Shown piece by piece: positions 3,775 to 45,371 of a stretch of DNA of 64,000 bases. How positions within the stretch are numbered: the stretch's first letter is position 1; each line of letters begins with the position of its first letter. A model generated the notes under the pieces. It ran no database searches. It saw only the letters and a program-made list of their open reading frames with translations, and was not told the origin of the DNA. The DNA is from a virus: the IMG/VR virus record IMGVR_UViG_3300029915_000016, positions 18,613 through 82,612 of that record. The stretch is one strand, 5' to 3'. A program made the position numbers and the translations under genes.

Positions 3775-3924
3775 ATGGTCAACGAGATCAACGCATCGAC
3801 TCAGGACTCAAGGGCGGGGAAGTCTCGTAGAAAAGTATCTCGTGCTGGTGTAGTAGACAAAGTGAAGAGTGAAAATCTGAAGAAACACGGAACCAAGAAA
3901 CGGTCTGTTCGGAAGAGGGTTTGA
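3775..3924 (+). CDS. Small basic protein, 49 aa (not in ORF track)
   Basis: GGAG RBS; MVNEINASTQ...KKRSVRKRV. Confidence 0.55.
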   Translation: MVNEINASTQDSRAGKSRRKVSRAGVVDKVKSENLKKHGTKKRSVRKRV

Positions 3925-3925
3925 T

Positions 3926-4216
3926 ATGTCAAAAGAGACATATGATCTCGTAAATACGGTCAAAGATGGATGGAAGACGGCGGCTGATTGGATGAGCGGT
4001 GGCCCAGTCAAAAGACTTTTCGATTCCAAGCCGAAAGGCGAACCGATTAAATTCGATGGCCCAAAAGAGAAAGAAGAACAACGGAAGGCAAACCAGAAGA
4101 CTACTCCAAAGCCAGCACCAGCAAAGAAAAAAGTAGGTGGTGGATCTCAATCTGGTACGCAGATTAAGACTGTCAAGAAGAGCGCACCAGCAAAGAAATA
4201 CGCAGCGAAGAGGTAA
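3926..4216 (+). CDS. Small Lys-rich basic protein
   Basis: Two APAKK motifs; tight packing. Confidence 0.6.
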   Translation: MSKETYDLVNTVKDGWKTAADWMSGGPVKRLFDSKPKGEPIKFDGPKEKEEQRKANQKTTPKPAPAKKKVGGGSQSGTQIKTVKKSAPAKKYAAKR

Positions 4217-4222
4217 AGGACA

Positions 4223-4510
4223 ATGGCGAAGAAGAAAAAGAATGTCGGTACGAGTGCAGCGCCCGCATCACCGTCTAGCTCTGGAAAGAGCCGAATCACT
4301 ACCGAAATCGAAAATGCAGAAAACGGTTTTGTAATCCGAGTGTGCAGTGATGGGCAAGGACCAGAAGGAAAGTATGAGAGCAAGAAATTCGTAGCTCCAG
4401 ATCACGCTTCCGCTCTCAGGATCGCAAACCAAGGGATGCTTGGAATGGGATTGAAGAGTGGAAAGAAAAAGAGAGCCAAAGGTAAAAGGTTGGTAAGCAA
4501 GAAGGCTTAA
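4223..4510 (+). CDS. Small basic protein
   Basis: RBS AAGGA; IENAENGF motif; basic termini. Confidence 0.6.
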   Translation: MAKKKKNVGTSAAPASPSSSGKSRITTEIENAENGFVIRVCSDGQGPEGKYESKKFVAPDHASALRIANQGMLGMGLKSGKKKRAKGKRLVSKKA

Positions 4511-4514
4511 GACT

Positions 4515-5867
4515 GTGGCAGGATCATATAGTTGGTTGACGTTTTTATCTGCTCGTCAACAGTTAGCCTCTCGCCTAGCTGATAGCGGGATGGTGTTCTG
4601 GACTGATAATGAGTTAAAGACCTATATCATTAAAGCACTTAGGATGTTCAACTGCATGACATTTACATTTAAGACTGATTTTTCATATAACCCCACAAAC
4701 CTATGGAACTCGCTAGGATCACTTACGGGGAGTCCTCGTCTTCGCACAGTCACCGATACGCAATCCTATATAAACATGGAGTACATGCTTTTGGAAAAAC
4801 CTTCTGGCGGGGTTTGGACGGGTACAACTCAGTTTGATATTGCGAGCATGAGCAGTGCGTTACAGCATCGTAGGGATGAGATGCTGCAAGTTTCTAACGC
4901 GAATCAATCTCTCATGCCGGGGATAGGATTAACACCGGGAACTAGACGTACAAATTTACCGGATACGGTTATAGACGTGGCAAGGATGAGGTATATCCCG
5001 GTAACTGGAAACCCTGCAACTCTCTATCGTGATGACTCGGTAGCGCAGGAGTTTTACGAGGCAGGATATTTGCAAGCGCCATCAGGAACGCCCCAAACGT
5101 ACATGGTATCGTCCGAACCTCCATTGTCGTTTGACGTGGATATTACACCAGATCAACCCGGAACCTATGAGGCTGTAGTATCACAATCAGGAACAGCGTT
5201 AAATCCTCCTACTGCTACTATATTAGGCATCCCCAACGACTACGCATGGGTAGCCGAGTATGGAGCCTTGGCAGATTTGCTAGGACGTGAATCAGAGGCG
5301 ACAGATAGGGAGAGATCGGCATACTGTTTGAAGCGTTATCAGGATGGTTTGAATCTTTTACTGCATACACCGTGGATTATGTTGGCAAACGTAAACGGAA
5401 TAGCGGTAAGCGTGGACTCGATCAAAGATATGGACAACTACAGTCCAGAGTGGGACTCAAACCCAACCGGATTTGGACCAGTGGTAGTGGCTGGAGGGAT
5501 TGATTTCATCGCAGCGCCCGTAGGATTGTCCATAGGTTTAACGGTTCTCGGTAACGCTCCAGTTCCAACACTTGATACGGATTATTTGCAAATTTCAAGA
5601 AGCGATGTCGATATAATTTACGATTTAGCGCAGTCGCTCGCGTGCTTCAAGCTCGGAGGGGCAGACTTTAAGTCTGCTCTCGAACTAGAATCAAGGGCAA
5701 TTCAGGCATGTGCAGCAGAGAATTCTCGCCTAAAATCGACAGGATCGTTCGCTGACATCATCATCCAGCGCGGTCAGGCACAAGATAGGAGTCAGAACAG
5801 GTACAACGACATTACGGATAGCAAGATACAAGCACTCCGTAAAACACATCCTGAGTATTTTCAGTAG
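4515..5867 (+). CDS. Putative head-tail adaptor/tail tubular protein A-like
   Basis: ARQQLASRL..FWTDNEL..YI N-terminus typical of adaptors; position before large tail gene. Confidence 0.5.
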   Translation: MAGSYSWLTFLSARQQLASRLADSGMVFWTDNELKTYIIKALRMFNCMTFTFKTDFSYNPTNLWNSLGSLTGSPRLRTVTDTQSYINMEYMLLEKPSGGVWTGTTQFDIASMSSALQHRRDEMLQVSNANQSLMPGIGLTPGTRRTNLPDTVIDVARMRYIPVTGNPATLYRDDSVAQEFYEAGYLQAPSGTPQTYMVSSEPPLSFDVDITPDQPGTYEAVVSQSGTALNPPTATILGIPNDYAWVAEYGALADLLGRESEATDRERSAYCLKRYQDGLNLLLHTPWIMLANVNGIAVSVDSIKDMDNYSPEWDSNPTGFGPVVVAGGIDFIAAPVGLSIGLTVLGNAPVPTLDTDYLQISRSDVDIIYDLAQSLACFKLGGADFKSALELESRAIQACAAENSRLKSTGSFADIIIQRGQAQDRSQNRYNDITDSKIQALRKTHPEYFQ

Positions 5868-30060: not shown

Positions 30061-30132
30061 ATGAAGAACTTGTGCTTATCTCTATCGTCTTATTGCTCAC
30101 TCAGTCTGAGTGGACGAGAGGCTATGGGATAA
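30061..30132 (+). CDS. Leader peptide 1 (MKNLCLSLSSYCSLSLSGREAMG)
   Basis: Codons 4-17 are all Leu/Cys/Ser/Tyr, matching downstream tRNAs. Confidence 0.85.
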   Translation: MKNLCLSLSSYCSLSLSGREAMG

Positions 30133-31734: not shown

Positions 31735-32475
31735 ATGACACCCCTATCCAAAGATACACCTATTACTCGTAAACGCGAAAGAGCATTATATTATCGAGAG
31801 TATAGGAAGAAAAAAGGTGCAAATCAAAGATCAGAACAAGAAGCCTTGCGTCTAAAAGCATTAGAAGAATACATCAAAAACCCAAACGTATGCTTGTTTT
31901 GCTCAAAAGTAATTGAACCTAAAATAACAGAAAAACTCTCGATAACTAAACGTAAGAGATACTGTGACGTTAAATGCTCAAGTGCGTCAAGAAAGAGAGA
32001 GTGTAAGTGTGTACCATGCATCTACTGCGGTAAACCATTAAAGAGACACCTAAAGAAATTCTGCACGAAAAGCTGCGCGTCTCGGTCAAGGGGAATCTTG
32101 CAATCTATTACGAAAGGCGATCTTTTCTCGAAAAGATCTGGATACCAATCGGCGAGGAGCGCCATACAAAGGGATGCTAGAACTGTGTACTTGTGGAGTA
32201 AAAGGAAACTGGAGTGTTTAATTTGTGGATACTCGAAGCATGTGGATATAGCGCACATCAAACCTGTTTCAGATTTCGATGATGCGTGTACTGTCGCTGA
32301 GATAAACGCGATGGATAACCTTGTTTCTCTATGTCCTAATCACCATTGGGAATTTGATCACGGTTTTTTGAAATTCAACGCTGGTTGCTTTGAAGGATCG
32401 AATACACGTAAAGTAATCCGAAAACGTGATTACGATCAAATAAACCTATTTCCACTAGCGCAGAATAATTCTTGA
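31735..32475 (+). CDS. HNH endonuclease with N-terminal Cys clusters
   Basis: CLICG...AHIKP...NLVSLCPNHH; RBS GGAGG. Confidence 0.85.
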   Translation: MTPLSKDTPITRKRERALYYREYRKKKGANQRSEQEALRLKALEEYIKNPNVCLFCSKVIEPKITEKLSITKRKRYCDVKCSSASRKRECKCVPCIYCGKPLKRHLKKFCTKSCASRSRGILQSITKGDLFSKRSGYQSARSAIQRDARTVYLWSKRKLECLICGYSKHVDIAHIKPVSDFDDACTVAEINAMDNLVSLCPNHHWEFDHGFLKFNAGCFEGSNTRKVIRKRDYDQINLFPLAQNNS

Positions 32476-32506
32476 CAACTGTATATAATTGCGTTATCGT
32501 TTAATT

Positions 32507-32584
32507 CGCGGGGTGGACTGGAGACGGTTCCAGCTTGGTCTCATAAGCCAAATCACGTCGGTTCGATTCCGATTCCCGCAACCA
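32507..32584 (+). tRNA. trnfM: tRNA-fMet(CAT), initiator type
   Basis: C1:A72 mismatch; ctCATaa; own promoter TTGACA-N17-TATCGT (32472-32500). Confidence 0.8.
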
Positions 32585-35085: not shown

Positions 35086-35160
35086 ATGATGACCTTTACC
35101 ACACATACCGCGACACAAGCACCGACGCAGCCAGCCGGTAATCGCGGAAGTGCAGGATAG
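35086..35160 (+). CDS. Leader peptide 2 (MMTFTTHTATQAPTQPAGNRGSAG)
   Basis: Codons 3-21 all T/F/H/A/Q/P/G/N/R, the amino acids of the downstream tRNAs. Confidence 0.85.
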   Translation: MMTFTTHTATQAPTQPAGNRGSAG

Positions 35161-35251: not shown

Positions 35252-35689
35252 ATGGGGAAAGCGATTCACGTTATTAGCAATGTTGATGAAGATATGAAGA
35301 CGGCAGATTGTGCGTTTTGTGGTCGCGTGAAAGTGAAACTGAAAAATAATGGTAAGGGTAGATCAAGGCGGTGGGCATGTACTATCGCGCAGAAAAAATG
35401 GGACGGTGCAAGATGTAAAACAGGAAAACCGCTTCGCAATATGACAGACGAGCAAATGGCTCACTACGTATTCAATCGACACGGAAGTTGTGATATTTGC
35501 GGTAGCGTACCACGCCGAATGTTGAACCGAGATCACTGCCATGTAACAGGAAACCTTCGCGGCTTGCTGTGCTATCGCTGTAATACGCTGCTAGGAAAAT
35601 TTGATGACAGCATCGAGAAACTCCGTATAAAGGCAGATATTTTCCTGAAGGCGGCATGTTATCTCGAAAGGAACGATACAAAGTTTTGA
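35252..35689 (+). CDS. Endonuclease VII-family nuclease
   Basis: CDICG..RDHCH.TG.LRGLLCYRCN. Confidence 0.85.
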   Translation: MGKAIHVISNVDEDMKTADCAFCGRVKVKLKNNGKGRSRRWACTIAQKKWDGARCKTGKPLRNMTDEQMAHYVFNRHGSCDICGSVPRRMLNRDHCHVTGNLRGLLCYRCNTLLGKFDDSIEKLRIKADIFLKAACYLERNDTKF

Positions 35690-37865: not shown

Positions 37866-38011
37866 AAGCGAGAGCCGGAAGAGTTGGATTATCGCCTATG
37901 GAGCGGGTTATACGGGTTCGAGTCCCGTCTGGGGAACCAATAACGAATCGACTTCCCCGGTCGTCTAATGGCAGGACGCCTAAACATCCAGTTCGCTATT
38001 TGTTCTCGCTT
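37866..38011 (+). ncRNA. Y RNA-like 1 (YrlA-type; T arm before D arm)
   Basis: Terminal stem with GAGCCGGAAG/CTATTTGTTC; GGTTCGAGTCC precedes GTCTAATGGCAGGAC. Confidence 0.75.
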
Positions 38012-38018
38012 TAAGTTT

Positions 38019-38148
38019 TGCACGAGCCGTCCGAATTTCGTTATCCTCCGCCAAACTGGGGGCGTAGCTTAATGGCTAAAGCGCCAGAGTAATCTGGATA
38101 TTGGGTTCGAGTCCCACGTCAACGCGAAGTTCAATTTTTGTTCGTGCA
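38019..38148 (+). ncRNA. Y RNA-like 2 with embedded tRNA-like D/AC/T arms
   Basis: Same terminal motif; TAGCTTAATGG...GGTTCGAGTCC. Confidence 0.7.
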
Positions 38149-38230: not shown

Positions 38231-38710
38231 ATGGGTTTCATAGCCGAAGTTTCAGCCACAGATAGGTTTTGGAGTAAGGTTGATAAATCGGCTGGGCATG
38301 GTCCAAACGGGGACTGTTGGGTTTGGACTGCACGTAGGAATTTAGATGGCTATGGGCAGTTTCGTCCTTCCTCTTGGAGATCAGGTGGTAAACTTGTAAG
38401 CGCACACGTATTTTCGTATCGCGAGAGTTTTGGCGAGTTTGATGCTGGATTACAAGTCCTGCATCGCTGCGATAATCCGGCTTGCGTTAGGGCAGAACAT
38501 TTGTTTGTAGGTACGCAGGGTGACAATGTTCACGACATGATAGCGAAAAATAGATCGGGCCTAAATTTTCTTGGCTCTGATGTGATCGCTAACATTCTCG
38601 CGATGCATGGCAAAGGGATTAAACAGACAGAAATTGCCAAGAACGTTGGGATACACAAGCAATCTGTCTGGAGAATCATTAAGAGGATGGCGGTAAAATC
38701 CTTGGCGTGA
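38231..38710 (+). CDS. HNH endonuclease with C-terminal HTH
   Basis: RFWSKV..CWVW..VLHRCDNPACV..HLFVGT..DN. Confidence 0.9.
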   Translation: MGFIAEVSATDRFWSKVDKSAGHGPNGDCWVWTARRNLDGYGQFRPSSWRSGGKLVSAHVFSYRESFGEFDAGLQVLHRCDNPACVRAEHLFVGTQGDNVHDMIAKNRSGLNFLGSDVIANILAMHGKGIKQTEIAKNVGIHKQSVWRIIKRMAVKSLA

Positions 38711-38795: not shown

Positions 38796-38938
38796 AAGTG
38801 CGAGTCGAAAGAAGTTGATTATCTCAACATGAATGTCATGGGTTCGATTCCCATCGTCGTAGTAATACGATGTAGCTCAGTTGGTAGAGCGTCTGGATGC
38901 CGAAAGGCGTATTCGACTTCAACCATTTATTCGCACTT
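38796..38938 (+). ncRNA. Y RNA-like 5 (YrlA-type; T arm before D arm)
   Basis: GTCGAAAG motif; GGTTCGATTCC then TAGCTCAGTTGGTAGAGC. Confidence 0.75.
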
Positions 38939-39195: not shown

Positions 39196-40881
39196 ATGAA
39201 GAACTATATCACCAATGTAATTGATCCATCCACCACGCCTCAGACTGAGGCACTTCCAAACAAAAACCAAGTGAAGAACTCCGCTGGCGGATTCGTGTTT
39301 GCTGTGACGCCATGGACCCGGCTTGAGAGGTTCCTTGTACTGGGAACTGAGGGCGGATCATACTACGCATCAGAGCGCGATCTGACCAAGACCAACATCG
39401 ATGGCCTCAAGTCTGCTTTGGCTGAGGATGGCATCCGGTTTGTCAACACGGTTGCCCAAATCAGTCATGCTGGCCGTGCGCCGAAGAATGATCCTGCGTT
39501 GTTTGCATTGGCTTTGGCTGTTGCCGACAAGCGCAAGGATGTATCCGCATACGCCCTGAGCAAGCTGTCAGACGTGGCGAGAATTCCCACACACCTGTTT
39601 TCCTTTGCACAGTACGTGCAGAGCCTACGGGGTTGGGGAAGGGCGCTGCGTGGTGGAGTGGCTGATTGGTATCTGTCTAAGCCTGCTGACAAGTTGGCTT
39701 ACCAACTTGCAAAGTACCAGTCGCGTAACGGATGGTCAAACGCAGACCTTTTGCGCCTGAGTCATGCCAACCCTGAGTTGCAGCCTGACCATAAGATTCT
39801 TTTGAATTGGGCTGTGAAGGGATGGGAGTCTGTTGGTGACGATCCTCATCCGTCAAAGGCTGTTCTTCCGGTGTGGGCATTTGAAAAGGCAAAGCGCCTC
39901 ACTCCTCAAACGGGAATCAAGGAACTGGTTAGTCTCATTGCGGATTACGATCTTCCGCGTGAGTGCATTCCTACCGAGTTCTTGTCTCATATTGAGGTAT
40001 GGGATGCATTGCTTCAGAAGATGCCAATGACGGCCATGATTCGCAACCTTGGAAAGATGACTTCCATCGGACTAGTCTCGCCAAACAGTGAGGCGGCAAA
40101 GATGGTAGGAAAGCGCCTTGAGGACGCAGAACTGCTCCACAAGGCACGGATTCATCCTATCTCTGTGCTGATGGCACAATCTGTCTACAAGTGCGGTCAT
40201 GGACTCAAAGGCAACTTGTCATGGTCTCCTGTACCGCGTGTTGTAAACGCTCTAGAGAAGGCTTTCTATGCTTCTTTTGCCAACGCACCAAAGACCGGAA
40301 AGAGGTTCTACATCGGCCTTGACGTTTCCGGTTCGATGGGAAGCGGATATGTTGCCGGAAGTCAATTGACTCCTCGTGAGGCTGCTGCTGCTATGGCAAT
40401 GGTAACCATGAAGACGGAGGACGAGTATTACATCGCTGGATTCACGAACGGCACATCCCGCTCTGCATGGTCTAGCCAAGGATATGGCTCTGGTGTCACG
40501 AAGTTGGAATTGACTCCTGATATGACTTTGAAAGCTGCTTGCCGGTACACTTCTGATTTGCCTTTCGGTGGAACAGACTGCGCTTTGCCAATGATCGATG
40601 CTTTGGAGAAGAAGATCCCTGCGGACGTGTTCATGGTCATCACTGACTCTGAAACGTGGGCAGGAACCAAGCACCCAACCGTTGCTTTGCAGGAATACCG
40701 CAACAAGATGAAGATCGACGCCAAGTTGATCGTCATGGGAATGGTATCGAACGAGTTCACGATTGCCGATCCTACCGATGCGGGACAGATGGACGTGGTT
40801 GGATTCGATGCGTCCGTTCCACAGGTCATCGCTCAGTTCATCGGCGTGGATGAGCCTCTGGCTGTTGAAACAGACGACTAA
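39196..40881 (+). CDS. rsr: Ro60/Rsr TROVE-vWA RNA-binding protein
   Basis: NSAGGFVF, RLERFLVLGTEGGSYY, GWGRALR, KYQSRNGWS, MIRNLGKM, vWA DVSGSM, ITDSET. Confidence 0.95.
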   Translation: MKNYITNVIDPSTTPQTEALPNKNQVKNSAGGFVFAVTPWTRLERFLVLGTEGGSYYASERDLTKTNIDGLKSALAEDGIRFVNTVAQISHAGRAPKNDPALFALALAVADKRKDVSAYALSKLSDVARIPTHLFSFAQYVQSLRGWGRALRGGVADWYLSKPADKLAYQLAKYQSRNGWSNADLLRLSHANPELQPDHKILLNWAVKGWESVGDDPHPSKAVLPVWAFEKAKRLTPQTGIKELVSLIADYDLPRECIPTEFLSHIEVWDALLQKMPMTAMIRNLGKMTSIGLVSPNSEAAKMVGKRLEDAELLHKARIHPISVLMAQSVYKCGHGLKGNLSWSPVPRVVNALEKAFYASFANAPKTGKRFYIGLDVSGSMGSGYVAGSQLTPREAAAAMAMVTMKTEDEYYIAGFTNGTSRSAWSSQGYGSGVTKLELTPDMTLKAACRYTSDLPFGGTDCALPMIDALEKKIPADVFMVITDSETWAGTKHPTVALQEYRNKMKIDAKLIVMGMVSNEFTIADPTDAGQMDVVGFDASVPQVIAQFIGVDEPLAVETDD

Positions 40882-40900
40882 CAACAACCGATTGTGAGCA

Positions 40901-40934
40901 GGGGGTGCGGGAATATTCGCACTCCCTATTTTTT
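40901..40934 (+). terminator. Intrinsic terminator after Ro60
   Basis: GGGGTGCGG/TCGCACTCC + T run. Confidence 0.7.
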
Positions 40935-40945
40935 CAGGAGTAAAC

Positions 40946-41269
40946 ATGTATATCGTAGCTCTAATCTGGATGCACTTTGTATCTGATTTCGTCCTACAAT
41001 CGGACAAGATGGCGATCAATAAGTCAAAGGATAACCGTTGGCTCTTCTTTCACTGCCTTGTGTACTCTACACCATTCTTTGTCTTTGGATGGAAGTTTGG
41101 ATGCGTCACACTCCTATTCCATTTCGTGACAGACTACTTCACATCTCGTGGAACGTCCTACTTGTGGAAGAAAGAGATGCGCCACTGGTTCTTCACTTTA
41201 ATCGGCTTCGATCAAGCGATCCATCTGACGACATTATTTTTCACGTACCGATTTTTATGCTTGCGTTAG
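40946..41269 (+). CDS. DUF3307-like membrane protein
   Basis: HFVSDFVLQ...K...HF.TD...DQAIH. Confidence 0.8.
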   Translation: MYIVALIWMHFVSDFVLQSDKMAINKSKDNRWLFFHCLVYSTPFFVFGWKFGCVTLLFHFVTDYFTSRGTSYLWKKEMRHWFFTLIGFDQAIHLTTLFFTYRFLCLR

Positions 41270-41289
41270 GACTCGAAGTGGTGTACATT
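41261..41289 (+). promoter_or_regulatory. Putative promoter of tRNA operon 3
   Basis: TTGCGT-N17-TACATT. Confidence 0.55.
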
Positions 41290-41337
41290 GATTTTACACC
41301 GCAGAAGATCGTGCAGTCGCAGTCGGAAGGATTGAAT

Positions 41338-41412
41338 ATGCAGATCAGGACCAAATCCGTGAGATCCATAACCATGACCGGGAAGCGGGTCATTTGGGGA
41401 ACTTGCGTATGA
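41338..41412 (+). CDS. Leader peptide 3 (MQIRTKSVRSITMTGKRVIWGTCV)
   Basis: RBS GGAAGGA; 19 of 23 post-start codons are amino acids of the downstream tRNAs. Confidence 0.85.
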   Translation: MQIRTKSVRSITMTGKRVIWGTCV

Positions 41413-41437
41413 GGGTCTGAGTGCATTTGTGGTACAC

Positions 41438-41468
41438 AGACCTTCGCCTAGAGCGAGGGTTTTTTGTT
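41438..41468 (+). terminator. Attenuator terminator 3
   Basis: AGACCTTCGC-CTAGA-GCGAGGGTTT + TTTGTT; antiterminator GAGGGTCTG (41411-41419) pairs with CAGACCTTC. Confidence 0.85.
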
Positions 41469-41484
41469 GGAGTTCTTTGACAAT

Positions 41485-41558
41485 AGGGGATTAGTCTAAT
41501 GGCAAAACGTCTGCCTCCAGAGCAGAATTTACGGGTTCGAGTCCTGTATCCCCTGCCA
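41485..41558 (+). tRNA. trnW: tRNA-Trp(CCA)
   Basis: TCTGC-ctCCAga-GCAGA; GCCA. Confidence 0.9.
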
Positions 41559-41563
41559 GATTT

Positions 41564-41632
41564 GGCACGTATCCAAGGCGGAAAGCGGCTCTCATAAAGC
41601 CGTAAACTGGTTCGAGTCCAGACGTGCTACCA
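41564..41632 (+). tRNA. tRNA-Met or Ile2 (CAT), short D arm
   Basis: CGGCT-ctCATaa-AGCCG; ACCA. Confidence 0.7.
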
Positions 41633-41693
41633 AGTTCACGGCGGTTTAAACCTAAACCGATGGCGCAACACCATCCTGCCGTGATTAGTTTTT

Positions 41694-41771
41694 GGGGGTG
41701 TAGCTAGTGTTGGCACCAGCAGTCTCCTTATAAGAGACCGTCCGAAGGTTCGATTCCTTCCACCCCTACCA
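41694..41771 (+). tRNA. trnI: tRNA-Ile(TAT)
   Basis: GTCTC-ctTATaa-GAGAC; ACCA. Confidence 0.8.
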
Positions 41772-41775
41772 TAGT

Positions 41776-41862
41776 GGGACTGTGGCCTAGTCAGGTTTTG
41801 GGCACCCGGCTCTTACCCGGCGCGGAAACGCAACGTAGGTTCAAATCCTACCAGTCCCACCA
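41776..41862 (+). tRNA. trnK: tRNA-Lys(CTT), long variable arm
   Basis: CCGG-ctCTTac-CCGG; GCGGAAACGC arm. Confidence 0.75.
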
Positions 41863-41873
41863 ACACTTTTAAC

Positions 41874-41949
41874 GGGTTTGTCCTCCAACGTCTAGGAAAC
41901 TCGCCTTTTAAGCGAAGCAATGTGGGTTAGAGTCCCACCAAACCCACCA
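41874..41949 (+). tRNA. trnK: tRNA-Lys(TTT)
   Basis: TCGC-ctTTTaa-GCGA; ACCA. Confidence 0.8.
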
Positions 41950-41950
41950 T

Positions 41951-42028
41951 GCACTCGTACCGGCCTCGCCTTCTAAGCGAGTTCACCGTAACTGGAATAT
42001 GCGAGTTCGACTCTCGCCGAGTGCCCCA
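41951..42028 (+). tRNA. trnR: tRNA-Arg(TCT), no canonical D arm
   Basis: Perfect acceptor, anticodon and T arms; only 7 nt at the D position. Confidence 0.7.
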
Positions 42029-42033
42029 GTTTT

Positions 42034-42110
42034 GCCGCTGTATCTCCCCTGCCTCCTAAGCAGGTAAGAGTAAGTGGATGATGACGGTTCGAGTCCGTCC
42101 AGCGGTTCCA
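42034..42110 (+). tRNA. trnR: tRNA-Arg(CCT), no canonical D arm
   Basis: Same architecture as the neighbouring Arg(TCT). Confidence 0.7.
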
Positions 42111-42125
42111 TGAGGGAGAAGTGAA

Positions 42126-42401
42126 ATGCGAAAGTCATCATTAACCGATCCATTGACGGACGAGGAAGTAGACGCAGCAAACGCCGATCCTAGCGACATG
42201 TGGATTCATGTGCGGTGCAAGGATTGTGGGGATGTTGAGTGTTGCTTCAACCGGACAGTAACGTCATGGCAACGTCGGTGTTTTCCTTGCCAGATGGGTT
42301 GGAAGCCGATGAAGAGCGTTAAGAAGATCGCAGAGGTCAACGGATTCAAGCCAGTTCCTATGCGACAACAGGAAGATACGTTTGATCGTGAAACACGATG
42401 A
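42126..42401 (+). CDS. Small Zn-ribbon protein
   Basis: CKDC...CFPC; RBS GGGAG. Confidence 0.55.
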   Translation: MRKSSLTDPLTDEEVDAANADPSDMWIHVRCKDCGDVECCFNRTVTSWQRRCFPCQMGWKPMKSVKKIAEVNGFKPVPMRQQEDTFDRETR

Positions 42402-42408
42402 ACTTTTT

Positions 42409-42483
42409 GCAGGCGTGGTGAAACGGAGATCACAAAGCCCCCCGAAGGCTTAATTCTCGGTTCGAATCCGAGCGCTTGTACCA
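42409..42483 (+). tRNA. trnR: tRNA-Arg(CCG)
   Basis: AAGCC-ccCCGaa-GGCTT; ACCA. Confidence 0.8.
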
Positions 42484-42491
42484 TAGTTTTT

Positions 42492-42566
42492 GCCCCGCTC
42501 GTCTAAAGGTAAAGACCGAAGTCCTACAAACTTCAGATCGGCGTTCAATTCGTCGGTGGGGCACCA
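42492..42566 (+). tRNA. trnV: tRNA-Val(TAC)
   Basis: GAAGT-ccTACaa-ACTTC; ACCA. Confidence 0.8.
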
Positions 42567-42645
42567 AGTTCGGAGTCTGAGGGTTGGTAGCCCTTGGAGG
42601 TTACAACGCACAGATCGAACACCTGTGACTCTGGGATGTGTAAAT

Positions 42646-42719
42646 GTCGATGTAGCACAGTGGCAGTGCCATTGCTCGGTAAGCAATAGACCCGCGTTCG
42701 ATTCGCGGCATCGGCTCCA
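42646..42719 (+). tRNA. trnT: tRNA-Thr(GGT)
   Basis: ATTGC-tcGGTaa-GCAAT; TCCA. Confidence 0.8.
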
Positions 42720-42720
42720 T

Positions 42721-42798
42721 GGCGGTCTAGCTCACATTGAGAAGAGCGTTCCCCTGATAAGGGAGAGGCACCCAGTTCAATTCTGGGGACCGCCACCA
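42721..42798 (+). tRNA. trnI: tRNA-Ile(GAT)
   Basis: TCCC-ctGATaa-GGGA; ACCA. Confidence 0.85.
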
Positions 42799-42806
42799 TA
42801 CGTTGT

Positions 42807-42890
42807 GCGGGTCTTGAGTAATTGGTTGCTCAGTGGTCCTCCAAACCACCGCCGTAAGGCATACGGGTTCGACCCCCGTGACCCGCTCCA
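42807..42890 (+). tRNA. trnG: tRNA-Gly(TCC), long variable arm
   Basis: GTGGT-ccTCCaa-ACCAC; GCCGTAAGGC arm; TCCA. Confidence 0.8.
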
Positions 42891-44057: not shown

Positions 44058-45371
44058 TTTGTGCGAGGATACCGTCTGCTTTAGCTGACGGAGGAATCGC
44101 ATCGTCCTTTCTGTAGATTGACAATTACATCGTAACATAGTATTGTGTGAATGTGAGCATTAAACGCGCATATCGTTTTCGAGTTACCCCCACGCCTGCT
44201 CAAGAGAACATCCTTGCTCGGACGTTTGGGAGTGCGCGTTTTGCCTACAATTACATGCTTCGTCTGCGAACGGATGCATGGTTCAACGAACAGAAGAGAA
44301 TCGGCTACCATGAAACCTCCGCTATTCTGACAAAACTAAAGGATAATCCAGAATTCGAGTGGTTGAACGAAGTCAGTTGTGTTCCCGTCCAGCAATCGTT
44401 AAGGCACCTCCAAACCGCTTTTGGAAACTTCTTTGCGCACCGGAACAAGTATCCTATGTTCAAGAAGAAGGACGGAAAACAAGCTGCGGAGTACACAACT
44501 AGCGCATTCAAGTGGGATGGGAAAGAACTGAAACTGGCGAAGATGGATGAACCATTAAATATTATCTGGTCCCGTTCTATCCCTAAAGCGGCTAAGGTAA
44601 CAACTTGTACAGTGTCTAAAGACTGCTCAGGCCGATACTTTGTTTCAATGCTATGCGATGATTCAGTAAGCGCAAAGCCTGAAGTTGATGGGAAAGTTGG
44701 AATTGATCTTGGATTGACACACTTTGCAATTCTGTCCAATGGAGAAAAGATTGCATCTCCTAATACTTTCCGTAAGAACGAAGCTAGACTTGCCATACTG
44801 CAAAGGAGACTAGCAAAGAAGCATAAAGGTTCCGCCAATCGCGCAAAGGCAAAGCTGAAAGTAGCACGTATCCATGCCAAGATAGCCGATACGCGAAAAG
44901 ATTTTCTCCACAAACTCTCTACACGGCTGATAAACGAAAACCAAGTGATCTCCGTCGAGAGTCTAGCAGTAAACAACATGCAAAAGAACCATAGTCTTGC
45001 AAAGTCAATCTCCGATGCGAGTTGGTCAGAGTTTGTGAGGCAACTGGAGTACAAAGCACTTTGGTACGGACGCACTTTAATAGGAATTGATCGCTGGTAT
45101 CCATCTAGTAAACGATGCAACGATTGCGGGTATACCATCGGTTCTCTTCCGTTGAACGTTCGAGAGTGGACTTGTCCAGAGTGCGGCGTGGTCCATGATC
45201 GAGACATAAACGCAGCACGTAATATCTTGGCCGTAGGGCTTGCGGTGTCAGTCTGTGGAGAGGATGTAAGTCCCGTGTTGCTGTAAAGCGACATTGGCAG
45301 TCCTCGGTGAAGCAGAAAGTCTCAACAGTGATGTTGGGAATCCACCCTCTTTAAGGGGTGGAGGATGTCAA
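44058..45371 (+). mobile_element. IS605/IS1341-type element, tnpB only
   Basis: LE TTTGTGCGAGGATACC..CTTTAG..CGGAGGAATCGCAT; RE hairpin ending GGAGGATGTCAA. Confidence 0.8.
44147..45286 (+). CDS. tnpB: TnpB RNA-guided nuclease
   Basis: GIDLG, VESL, Zn ribbon, DRDINAA. Confidence 0.95.
   Translation: MNVSIKRAYRFRVTPTPAQENILARTFGSARFAYNYMLRLRTDAWFNEQKRIGYHETSAILTKLKDNPEFEWLNEVSCVPVQQSLRHLQTAFGNFFAHRNKYPMFKKKDGKQAAEYTTSAFKWDGKELKLAKMDEPLNIIWSRSIPKAAKVTTCTVSKDCSGRYFVSMLCDDSVSAKPEVDGKVGIDLGLTHFAILSNGEKIASPNTFRKNEARLAILQRRLAKKHKGSANRAKAKLKVARIHAKIADTRKDFLHKLSTRLINENQVISVESLAVNNMQKNHSLAKSISDASWSEFVRQLEYKALWYGRTLIGIDRWYPSSKRCNDCGYTIGSLPLNVREWTCPECGVVHDRDINAARNILAVGLAVSVCGEDVSPVLL

Follow-up and report, generated by a model that had tools for sequence, protein, structure and literature searches.

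We report that the last block of a long tRNA gene array in a phage from peat soil, IMG/VR record IMGVR_UViG_3300029915_000016, is probably controlled by a translated leader. The window that we analysed is 64 kb long and represents the final part of this 82.6-kb single-contig virus record. A short open reading frame (ORF) of 24 codons and a TGA stop, MQIRTKSVRSITMTGKRVIWGTCV, here referred to as leader 3, occupies positions 41338–41412 of the window, and the block of twelve tRNA genes behind it (block C) is the last of the array. The leader, its signals and the tRNA genes of the block all lie on the + strand. From the sequence we consider it likely that leader 3 is a ribosome-mediated transcription attenuator of the trp/his/ilv type, which would supply the tRNAs of the twelve-gene operon according to demand. 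The initial annotation of this DNA had read the leader as an attenuator, and that reading is supported by the ORF, by codons matched to the block, by a covarying terminator, by an antiterminator that a ribosome can mask, and by a pairing between regions 1 and 2 of the leader RNA, all of which are kept in about 30 homologues. The sequence itself establishes the ORF, the match of its codons and the alternative helices, as well as how these are conserved and covary.

As in leader-peptide attenuators, leader 3 is a short ORF with start signals, and its codons are tied to the product of the operon. A Shine–Dalgarno (SD)-like GGAAGGA (41325–41331) stands 6 nucleotides (nt) 5′ of the ATG. Further upstream, a promoter-like element at 41261–41289, consisting of a −35 TTGCGT (41261–41266), a 17-nt spacer and a −10 TACATT (41284–41289), overlaps the final codons of a DUF3307 gene. 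The pattern TTGCRW-N17-TAnnnT occurs at the equivalent place in relatives, including loci without DUF3307. We infer from these signals that the ORF is transcribed from this promoter and translated.

The initial annotation had claimed that all twelve anticodons downstream have a matching codon in the leader of 24 amino acids, and all twelve exact Watson–Crick codons are indeed present: TGG, ATG, ATA, AAG, AAA, AGA, AGG, CGG, GTA, ACC, ATC and GGA. It had named one glutamine, two serine and one cysteine codon as the only ones foreign to the cluster; this is correct for CAG, the two TCC and TGC, and incomplete in that GTC belongs to the same group. Under plain wobble, 18 of the 23 codons after the ATG are read by tRNAs of the block. 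All twelve codons were found in none of 2,000,000 random 24-codon ORFs generated with the codon usage of the genome (chance ≤ 5 × 10−7), while 2.2 × 10−4 of random ORFs cover all twelve anticodons if wobble is allowed, and at least 18 cognate codons of 23 occur in 10−6 of them. Stop-free shuffles of the leader’s own 69 bases cover the eleven non-Met codons exactly with a frequency of 3.3 × 10−6. Among the 1809 small ORFs of the 82.6-kb genome, 12/12 is reached by leader 3 alone (with three nested starts); the runner-up reaches 10, and is longer.

The leader RNA can form exclusive alternative structures. Region 1, the 5′ half of the leader (41338–41373), pairs with region 2 in the minimum-energy fold (z = −3.3): in the absence of a ribosome the first ~36 nt of the window leader and region 2 form a long hairpin, and the terminator forms behind it. 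Region 2 (GAGGGTCTGAGTGCA, 41411–41425) begins within the stop codon, and region 3 (TACACAGACCTTCGC, 41433–41447) is a partner either of region 2, giving the antiterminator, or of region 4, giving the terminator. The intrinsic terminator (41441–41465) stands between the leader and the first tRNA gene and is composed of a 7-bp G+C-rich stem, CCTTCGC (41441–41447) and GCGAGGG (41453–41459), with the loop CTAGA and a run of T6 (41460–41465). A U-tailed terminator and a competing 9-bp helix across the stop had both been proposed in the initial annotation, and both are borne out. GAGGGTCTG (41411–41419, across the TGA) forms nine pairs, one of them G–U, with CAGACCTTC (41437–41445) in the minimum-energy fold of 41395–41470, and this helix overlaps the 5′ arm of the terminator. 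The whole 2:3 duplex of the window has a predicted energy of −20.8 kcal/mol and occupies all 7 nt of that arm. The GGGTCT at the stop, said to be common to this leader and the second one of the array, likewise recurs in leader 2 as TAG GGTCTC. A hairpin inside the ORF (41374–41393; ATGACC/GGTCAT, with the loop GGGAAGCG containing AAG CGG) may act as a pause hairpin; in the relative G002 it is replaced by CCATC/GATGG, a fully compensated change.

The gap between the T-tract and tRNA-Trp is just 19 nt, and a promoter scan of the window detected no promoter-like site inside the tRNA block, so transcripts of the block must pass the terminator. A promoter between the terminator and tRNA-Trp was rejected because there is room for 19 nt only. 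Immediately 5′ of tRNA-Trp lies the conserved TCTTTGACAAT (41474–41484), and a motif TCTTTGAMAAT is found 0–3 nt 5′ of the start of tRNA-Trp in nearly all homologues. It may represent a processing site; its closeness to the 5′ end of the tRNA rules it out as a promoter of tRNA-Trp.

Homologues of leader 3 were collected in two steps. A search with the DUF3307 protein led to six syntenic loci and revealed AAGCGGGTCATTTGGG as the conserved core of the leader, and this 16-mer was then used to retrieve homologues from viral contigs and genome contigs. The scan of 596 Gb of genome contigs gave mostly chance matches, as a query of this length would in so much sequence, and loci were retained only if they also had the ORF, region 2 and a T-run; a blastn search of the phage collection returned only short matches to tRNA-Trp. 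The resulting set of about 30 homologues comes from viral contigs and from contigs of metagenome-assembled genomes (MAGs) of Acidobacteriaceae, Terracidiphilus, Terriglobia and Bryobacteraceae. It comprises 29 distinct leaders and 31 loci that could be folded, and 28 homologues were included in the ribosome masking described below. The order Trp-Met-Ile-Lys-Lys-Arg-Arg-Arg-Val-(Thr)-Ile-Gly of the tRNA genes is kept in all homologous loci. The leader frame is open in all listed homologues and ends in TGA (18), TAG (5) or TAA (6), while the +1 frame is closed in 29 of 29 leaders. In several relatives (G001, L024, L025, L028, L075, L090 and L096) the start is leaderless, 6–7 nt after the TAnnnT −10 and without an SD; the window, L026 and G002 have a longer 5′ untranslated region (UTR) and a purine-rich SD.

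One alternative, that the ORF arose by chance within the 3′ UTR and terminator of DUF3307, appears to us to have a negligible probability. The DUF3307 stop does lie 69 nt upstream of the ORF, whose frame extends without interruption into the DUF3307 gene. However, 25 of the 31 homologous loci have no DUF3307 upstream, and both the statistics of random ORFs and shuffles and the conservation among homologues speak against it. As DUF3307 precedes the leader in only 6 of the 31 loci, the leader is to be assigned to the tRNA block rather than to the gene upstream.

The codon content of the 29 leaders follows the tRNA block. TGG, ATG, AAG and CGG are present in 100% of them, ATA, AAA, ACC and GGA in 97%, AGA in 90% and AGG in 59%. 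ATT, which is read by GAU, occurs in every leader, and GTG, read by UAC, occurs 33 times over the 29. The block’s eight amino acids account for 524 of 661 leader codons (79%). The order of the codons, among them the rare AAA, ATA and AGA, varies with lineage, with AAA-AGA-ATA in the window and G002, AGA-ATA-AAA-AGG in L024, and AAA-ATA-AGA in most others. The preferred synonyms are those of the block: 73 arginine codons are AGA, AGG or CGG compared with 13 CGY or CGA (the tRNA for CGY/CGA is located in block B), 45 glycine codons are GGR compared with 15 GGY, and 83 threonine codons are ACY compared with 10 ACR. There are signs in these counts that codons rather than residues are under selection. 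In the locus L171, tRNA-Ile(TAT) is absent and an Arg tRNA is a decayed remnant; ATA and ACC are missing from the leader of L171 alone, and AGA is missing from it and from two others. Thr(GGT) was also tried as a test of covariation between codons and tRNAs and failed, with three ACC in leader 2 of the window though the tRNA is in block C.

Two more leaders stand in the same array. Leader 1 (MKNLCLSLSSYCSLSLSGREAMG, 30061–30132) precedes tRNA genes for Leu (three), Cys, Ser (three or four) and Tyr, and leader 2 (MMTFTTHTATQAPTQPAGNRGSAG, 35086–35160) precedes those for Asn, Gln (two), Gly, Thr (two), His, Phe, Pro (two) and Arg-ACG. Leader 1 covers 8/8, leader 2 11/11 and leader 3 12/12 of the tRNAs of its own block, and each covers only 1 to 5 of those of the other blocks. 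These patterns bear on the possibility that the attenuator is real and reports general elongation stress or amino-acid starvation instead of the supply of these tRNAs. Sampling of eight amino acids leaves the leader without specificity for any single one, non-cognate codons (TTC, GAC, CAC and CGC) appear in several leaders, and a tRNA array of Anabaena responds to ribosome-targeting antibiotics (PMC8421152). Nevertheless, we regard such a general sensor as unlikely. Codon choice tracks isoacceptors and not just amino acids, as the arginine (73 vs 13), threonine (83 vs 10) and glycine (45 vs 15) counts indicate, the three leaders of one genome divide the codons among themselves according to their own clusters, and starvation for amino acids would not be relieved by extra tRNA.

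The RNA structures are conserved along with the codons. A terminator is found in 31 of 31 loci with 14 distinct stem sequences, all perfectly paired. The 2:3 duplex, with −14 to −22.5 kcal/mol, is likewise found in 31 of 31, takes 4–8 nt of the 5′ terminator arm, and surpasses the terminator (−11 to −17 kcal/mol) in stability in 29 of 31. Regions 2 and 3 covary, as seen in the pairs GGGUCUG/CAGACC, GGGGUUGA/UCAGCCCC (L024) and CCGGGGG/CACCCCGG. These helices were extracted for each sequence separately; column-based covariation was dropped because the MAFFT alignment lost the register of the helices across loops of unequal length. The long 1:2 hairpin formed in all seven relatives that were folded.

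The effect of a ribosome was modelled by hiding a stretch of 28 nt around each codon placed in the A site; how probable the terminator stem then is was computed from equilibrium folds, that is, without co-transcriptional kinetics. In the window the terminator probability is 0.99 with no ribosome and 0.00–0.06 with a ribosome at codons 2–14. It amounts to 0.8–0.99 at codons 15–17 (GGG, AAG, CGG), 0.07–0.34 at codons 18–21, and 0.88–0.99 from codon 22 through the stop. With no ribosome it exceeds 0.9 in 26 of 28 homologues, some stall at codons 2–13 lowers it below 0.5 in 25 of 28, and with a ribosome at the stop codon it exceeds 0.9 in 28 of 28. The three states of classical attenuation are thus predicted in silico in 25 of the 28 homologues: an exclusive antiterminator is masked by the ribosome at the stop, and the 1:2 pairing restores termination without translation.

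It could be argued that all this reflects a structured but untranslated leader RNA, such as a constitutive insulator-terminator between blocks or a signal for pre-tRNA processing, in which the ORF is incidental. The region is highly structured (z = −3.3), the leader follows ~45 nt after the last tRNA of block B in the compact bacterial arrays, and a conserved TTTGAMAAT motif precedes tRNA-Trp. We find this explanation very improbable given that the frame is open in all listed homologues with three different stop codons, that an SD occurs exactly where the start is far from the −10, and that the codon match has an estimated chance of ≤ 3 × 10−6. Moreover, a constitutive stop would have no use for an antiterminator whose stability exceeds that of the terminator in 29 of 31 loci.

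Little credence can be given, in our opinion, to the ORF being a functional micropeptide with a conserved MT(G)KRVIWG core and its own terminator, to which the codon match would be secondary. The C-terminal half is nearly invariant as a peptide in the 29 homologues. However, this invariance extends to the bases, with no synonymous drift, and lies within paired RNA; the N-terminal half shifts in order and residues while its codon content is kept; and the C-terminus is freely variable, with 4–6 extra codons in five loci. A micropeptide would also leave unexplained the 12/12 match and the placement of the stop codon at the antiterminator.

We therefore return to attenuation, which could proceed as follows. 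Transcription would start at the weak promoter over the end of the DUF3307 gene, and a ribosome would translate the 24-codon leader. If decoding is fast, the ribosome would reach the TGA and cover region 2 (GAGGGUCUGAGUGCA), the 3:4 hairpin followed by U6 would form, and the polymerase would stop 20 nt before tRNA-Trp. A ribosome stalled in the first ~14 codons (ATC, AGG, ACC, AAA, GTG, AGA, ATA, ATG) would hold region 1 and leave region 2 free to capture the 5′ arm of the terminator, and the polymerase would continue into the genes for Trp, Met, Ile, two Lys, three Arg, Val, Thr, Ile and Gly. Without any ribosome, region 1 would pair with region 2 and the terminator would form. The operon would be up when charged and usable tRNAs of the block are short, and down once they have been supplied. 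Because the leader is spelled in the block’s own codons, this would constitute product feedback on tRNA supply. As for the physiological trigger, we infer slow decoding, for which low host tRNA, cleavage of tRNA by defence or stress nucleases (e.g., PrrC or colicin D), and general elongation stress are candidates. The neighbourhood of Ro60, Y-RNA-like genes and RtcB in these arrays would fit a setting of RNA damage, as would what has been published on the long tRNA array of Anabaena (see below).

Several observations weigh against this model or limit its reach. The promoter-like element is poor compared with the E. coli consensus, and was not flagged by the promoter scan. GTC, kept in all leaders, is not read by UAC under plain wobble, and AGG is absent from 41% of the leaders despite the presence of tRNA-Arg(CCT). 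In bacterial arrays tRNA-Thr(GGT) is located in block B, yet leader 3 there keeps two ACC, each of them within paired RNA. In its 3′ half (AAG CGG GTC ATT TGG GG) the leader is nearly invariant at the base level, and functions of the peptide and of the RNA are inseparable there since RNA pairing also constrains the bases. In the masking model G001, G002 and L082 have no stall that brings the terminator probability below 0.5, and in G001 and G002 it stays ≥ 0.96. The same equilibrium model keeps the terminator for stalls at GGG, AAG, CGG and the last three codons, and thus does not account for sensing at AAG (Lys-CTT), at CGG (Arg-CCG) and at the last codons. Finally, the homologues share ancestry, so the family-wide counts given for the 29 leaders, 31 loci and 28 masked homologues are descriptive and do not represent independent events.

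Multivalent leader-peptide attenuators are familiar from enterobacteria, where the thr leader responds to Thr and Ile and the ilvGMEDA leader to Ile, Leu and Val; trp, his, leu and pheA are controlled by related leaders. Like the attenuators of enterobacterial amino-acid operons, which have been modelled earlier (PMC1183508), leader 3 combines a translated leader rich in regulatory codons, exclusive 1:2, 2:3 and 3:4 helices and an intrinsic terminator, and in both the position of the ribosome would decide the outcome, lack of translation resulting in termination. Unlike the enterobacterial attenuators, leader 3 is directed at tRNAs rather than enzymes and would sense the product of its own operon, it samples twelve isoacceptors for eight amino acids, mostly once or twice, instead of containing runs of a single codon, and in several of its relatives the start is leaderless. 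To our knowledge, all described members of the leader-peptide class regulate genes for amino-acid biosynthesis or synthetases. Leader 3 departs from them in this respect, with twelve tRNA genes downstream, a departure that concerns the target and not the mechanism. A further precedent is pheST of E. coli, in which the pheM leader attenuates expression of a translation component in response to charged tRNA. It differs from leader 3 in that it controls a synthetase, not tRNA genes, and responds to a single amino acid.

T-box leaders also use antitermination to report the state of a specific tRNA. They differ in binding the uncharged tRNA directly, with no ribosome involved, and in regulating synthetase and amino-acid genes. 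In the segment 37400–43200, neither a T-box stem I specifier loop or T-box sequence nor any other Rfam cis-regulatory family was matched by the leader, either at the gathering threshold or with E values of up to 5, the only matches being tRNAs and two weak YrlA-like ones. Leaderless polycysteine short ORFs of mycobacteria, reported to be Cys-responsive attenuators (bioRxiv 10.1101/834739), likewise place a leaderless ORF at the 5′ end of an operon as a sensor of decoding speed; they differ in sampling only Cys, in having protein-coding targets, and in not being an intrinsic-terminator switch before tRNA genes.

Nearest in function is the trn operon of Anabaena sp. PCC 7120, a long tRNA array that is silent and becomes induced together with rtcB when translation is impaired (PMC8421152), and that is repressed by TrcR (PMC10272220). 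The Anabaena array is similar to the present one in its horizontal mobility and in its link to the RNA-repair gene rtcB, and both would be silent by default and needed when translation is impaired. Its control is different, involving a protein repressor whose targets are direct repeats that cover the −10 and the start site. Attenuation and leader peptides are mentioned in neither PMC8421152 nor PMC10272220, and the TrcR-type operator motif TGTWNWWNWNNWGTANYNWA is absent from the array analysed here, its one match, at chance level, lying far from the array.

A full-text search of the literature found no published leader peptide or attenuator before tRNA genes, and tRNA genes are likewise not mentioned in a survey of premature terminators. 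We know of leader-peptide attenuation only in protein-coding operons, where it reads amino-acid supply through the charging of tRNA. The mechanism of attenuation is known; as far as can be told, what is new is the tRNA gene target, the multivalent leader resolved by isoacceptors, and the use of one gauge per block. The tRNAs themselves appear to be brought under feedback by this device, with a gauge for each isoacceptor block. Leader 3 probably allows the phage, and Acidobacteria with the same array, to make these tRNAs only when their codons are decoded slowly. If true, this would explain how arrays of supernumerary tRNAs can be silent and still respond within minutes, how a phage could fit its tRNA output to the shortages of the infected cell, and why the arrays adjoin RNA-repair genes. 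The role of phage tRNAs is debated between codon compensation and escape from tRNA-targeting defence (PMC10264068), and this question becomes testable because the leader states which shortages the array answers. At ~170 nt the element is compact and modular, and could be used to gauge, in a tunable way, how fast chosen codons are decoded.

These results lead us to a broader and more tentative proposal, of which we are somewhat doubtful ourselves, that codon-matched leader attenuators could be a general control of the widespread mobile tRNA arrays of phages and chromosomes. Each block would be gated by its own gauge of decoding speed, and the array would function as an isoacceptor-resolved, self-limiting rescue upon cleavage or depletion of specific tRNAs (e.g., by anticodon nucleases or during abortive infection), alongside Ro60/Y-RNA or RtcB repair genes.

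The array as a whole contains at least 35 tRNA genes on the + strand, arranged in blocks, between 30188 and 42890 of the window (ARAGORN, Rfam and by-hand calls). Given this number, and the presence of the same array in phage contigs and in chromosomes of Acidobacteriaceae, it qualifies as a long tRNA gene array (L-array), described as at least 20 dense tRNA genes spread horizontally (PMC8421152). The full three-block array with its three leaders is found in chromosomal contigs of Acidobacteriaceae, Terracidiphilus and related MAGs (L108, L120, L127, L139, L150, L164, L168, L171, L183–L185, L194, L196, L204, L209 and L215). Within 1–2 kb these arrays are flanked by genes for a TonB-dependent receptor, a GH1 glycosidase, an extracytoplasmic function (ECF) sigma factor, a LysR regulator and a major facilitator superfamily (MFS) transporter, and because these are ordinary bacterial genes the array is also chromosomal in the probable host group. 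The chromosomal copies point to the host group of the phage and suggest that the array has passed between the two. In L164, an RtcB tRNA ligase gene (3836–5044) ends 50 nt before leader 3, at the place taken by Ro60 and DUF3307 in the phage. Asp and Glu tRNAs are added to block A of the bacterial arrays and the Cys and Leu-TAA tRNAs are missing; the bacterial leader 1 reads VKNLFKSYLSESLSDLLG... and has GAA and GAT in its codon run and neither TGC nor TTA, which makes it, besides L171, a second case of codons and tRNAs that co-vary.

The twelve genes of the last block are tRNA-Trp (CCA; 41485–41558), a short tRNA-Met (CAT; 41563–41632), tRNA-Ile (TAT; 41694–41771), tRNA-Lys (CTT; 41776–41862), tRNA-Lys (TTT; 41874–41949), tRNA-Arg (TCT; 41951–42028), tRNA-Arg (CCT; 42034–42110), tRNA-Arg (CCG; 42409–42483), tRNA-Val (TAC; 42492–42566), tRNA-Thr (GGT; 42646–42719), tRNA-Ile (GAT; 42721–42798) and tRNA-Gly (TCC; 42807–42890, called by ARAGORN, with a weak match to the tRNA-Sec model at the same place). 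Nine of them were called by ARAGORN, and Lys-TTT by Rfam as well as by ARAGORN with relaxed settings; calls from an ARAGORN run with introns allowed were spurious and were disregarded. Both programs missed Arg-TCT and Arg-CCT; these were identified by hand. In each of the two the acceptor stem has 7 bp, the anticodon arm is canonical, and a T arm and CCA are present; the D arm is replaced by 7 nt between the acceptor and anticodon stems, and the variable region is long (18–19 nt). This architecture is found in all relatives (L001, L002, L025, L026, L082, L083, L087, L090 and L093), several of which have it in the CCG tRNA as well, and because it is kept with covarying stems these tRNAs are probably functional and not decayed. 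Between Arg-CCT and Arg-CCG the block is interrupted by an ORF of 91 amino acids (42126–42401, + strand), which is rich in Cys (CxxC ... CxxC) and matched no Pfam family. A counterpart, 63% identical, lies within the tRNA block of L075, and the ORF is probably an insertion. Between tRNA-Met and tRNA-Ile lies a structured spacer of ~55 nt (41633–41693) with a T-rich stretch behind it. Its closing arms are CACGGCGG/CTGCCGTG in the window and CACAGCGG/CCGCTGTG in L025 (~2580–2660), and G002 lacks the spacer.

Directly upstream of leader 3 are the DUF3307 gene (40946–41269), a strong terminator (40900–40927) and the Ro60 gene (TROVE and vWA domains, 39196–40881). Two matches to the Y-RNA-like family YrlA, with 24 and 41 bits (Rfam threshold 69), lie upstream of Ro60 at 37885–38009 and 38805–38919, and tRNA-like pieces occur between them, including an Rfam tRNA match at 38058–38124. 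Genes for HNH endonucleases are located inside the array at 35252–35689 and 38231–38710. The former separates leader 2 from its own tRNAs and is absent in G002, where leader 2 directly abuts tRNA-Asn. A 302-aa protein encoded upstream of leader 1 had no relatives in a search of viral contigs.

The virus record is present across many peat metagenomes. In three peat metagenome runs (X12, X16 and X23) the summed contig depth over 41369–41435 is 7–15 times that of the flanks, the leader core is common to many related phages or arrays in these samples, and loose contig ends carry further leader variants with ATA, AGA, ACC and AAA. A peat metatranscriptome run contained 5% of the sampled words, and among its contigs are some with leader-like sequence and with the first tRNAs of relatives, one 338-nt contig from an L025-like relative spanning the leader to tRNA-Trp; as these contigs have no ends or strand and may include DNA carry-over, they neither support nor refute attenuation. 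At 32472–32584 a strong promoter-like TTGACA-N17-TATCGT stands immediately 5′ of an unusual tRNA-like gene whose anticodon loop contains CAT; ARAGORN could not type this gene, and G001 has a nearly identical copy. Just 3′ of the array, at 44147–45286, lies an IS605-type TnpB gene (OrfB_IS605 and Cas12f-like TNB domains).

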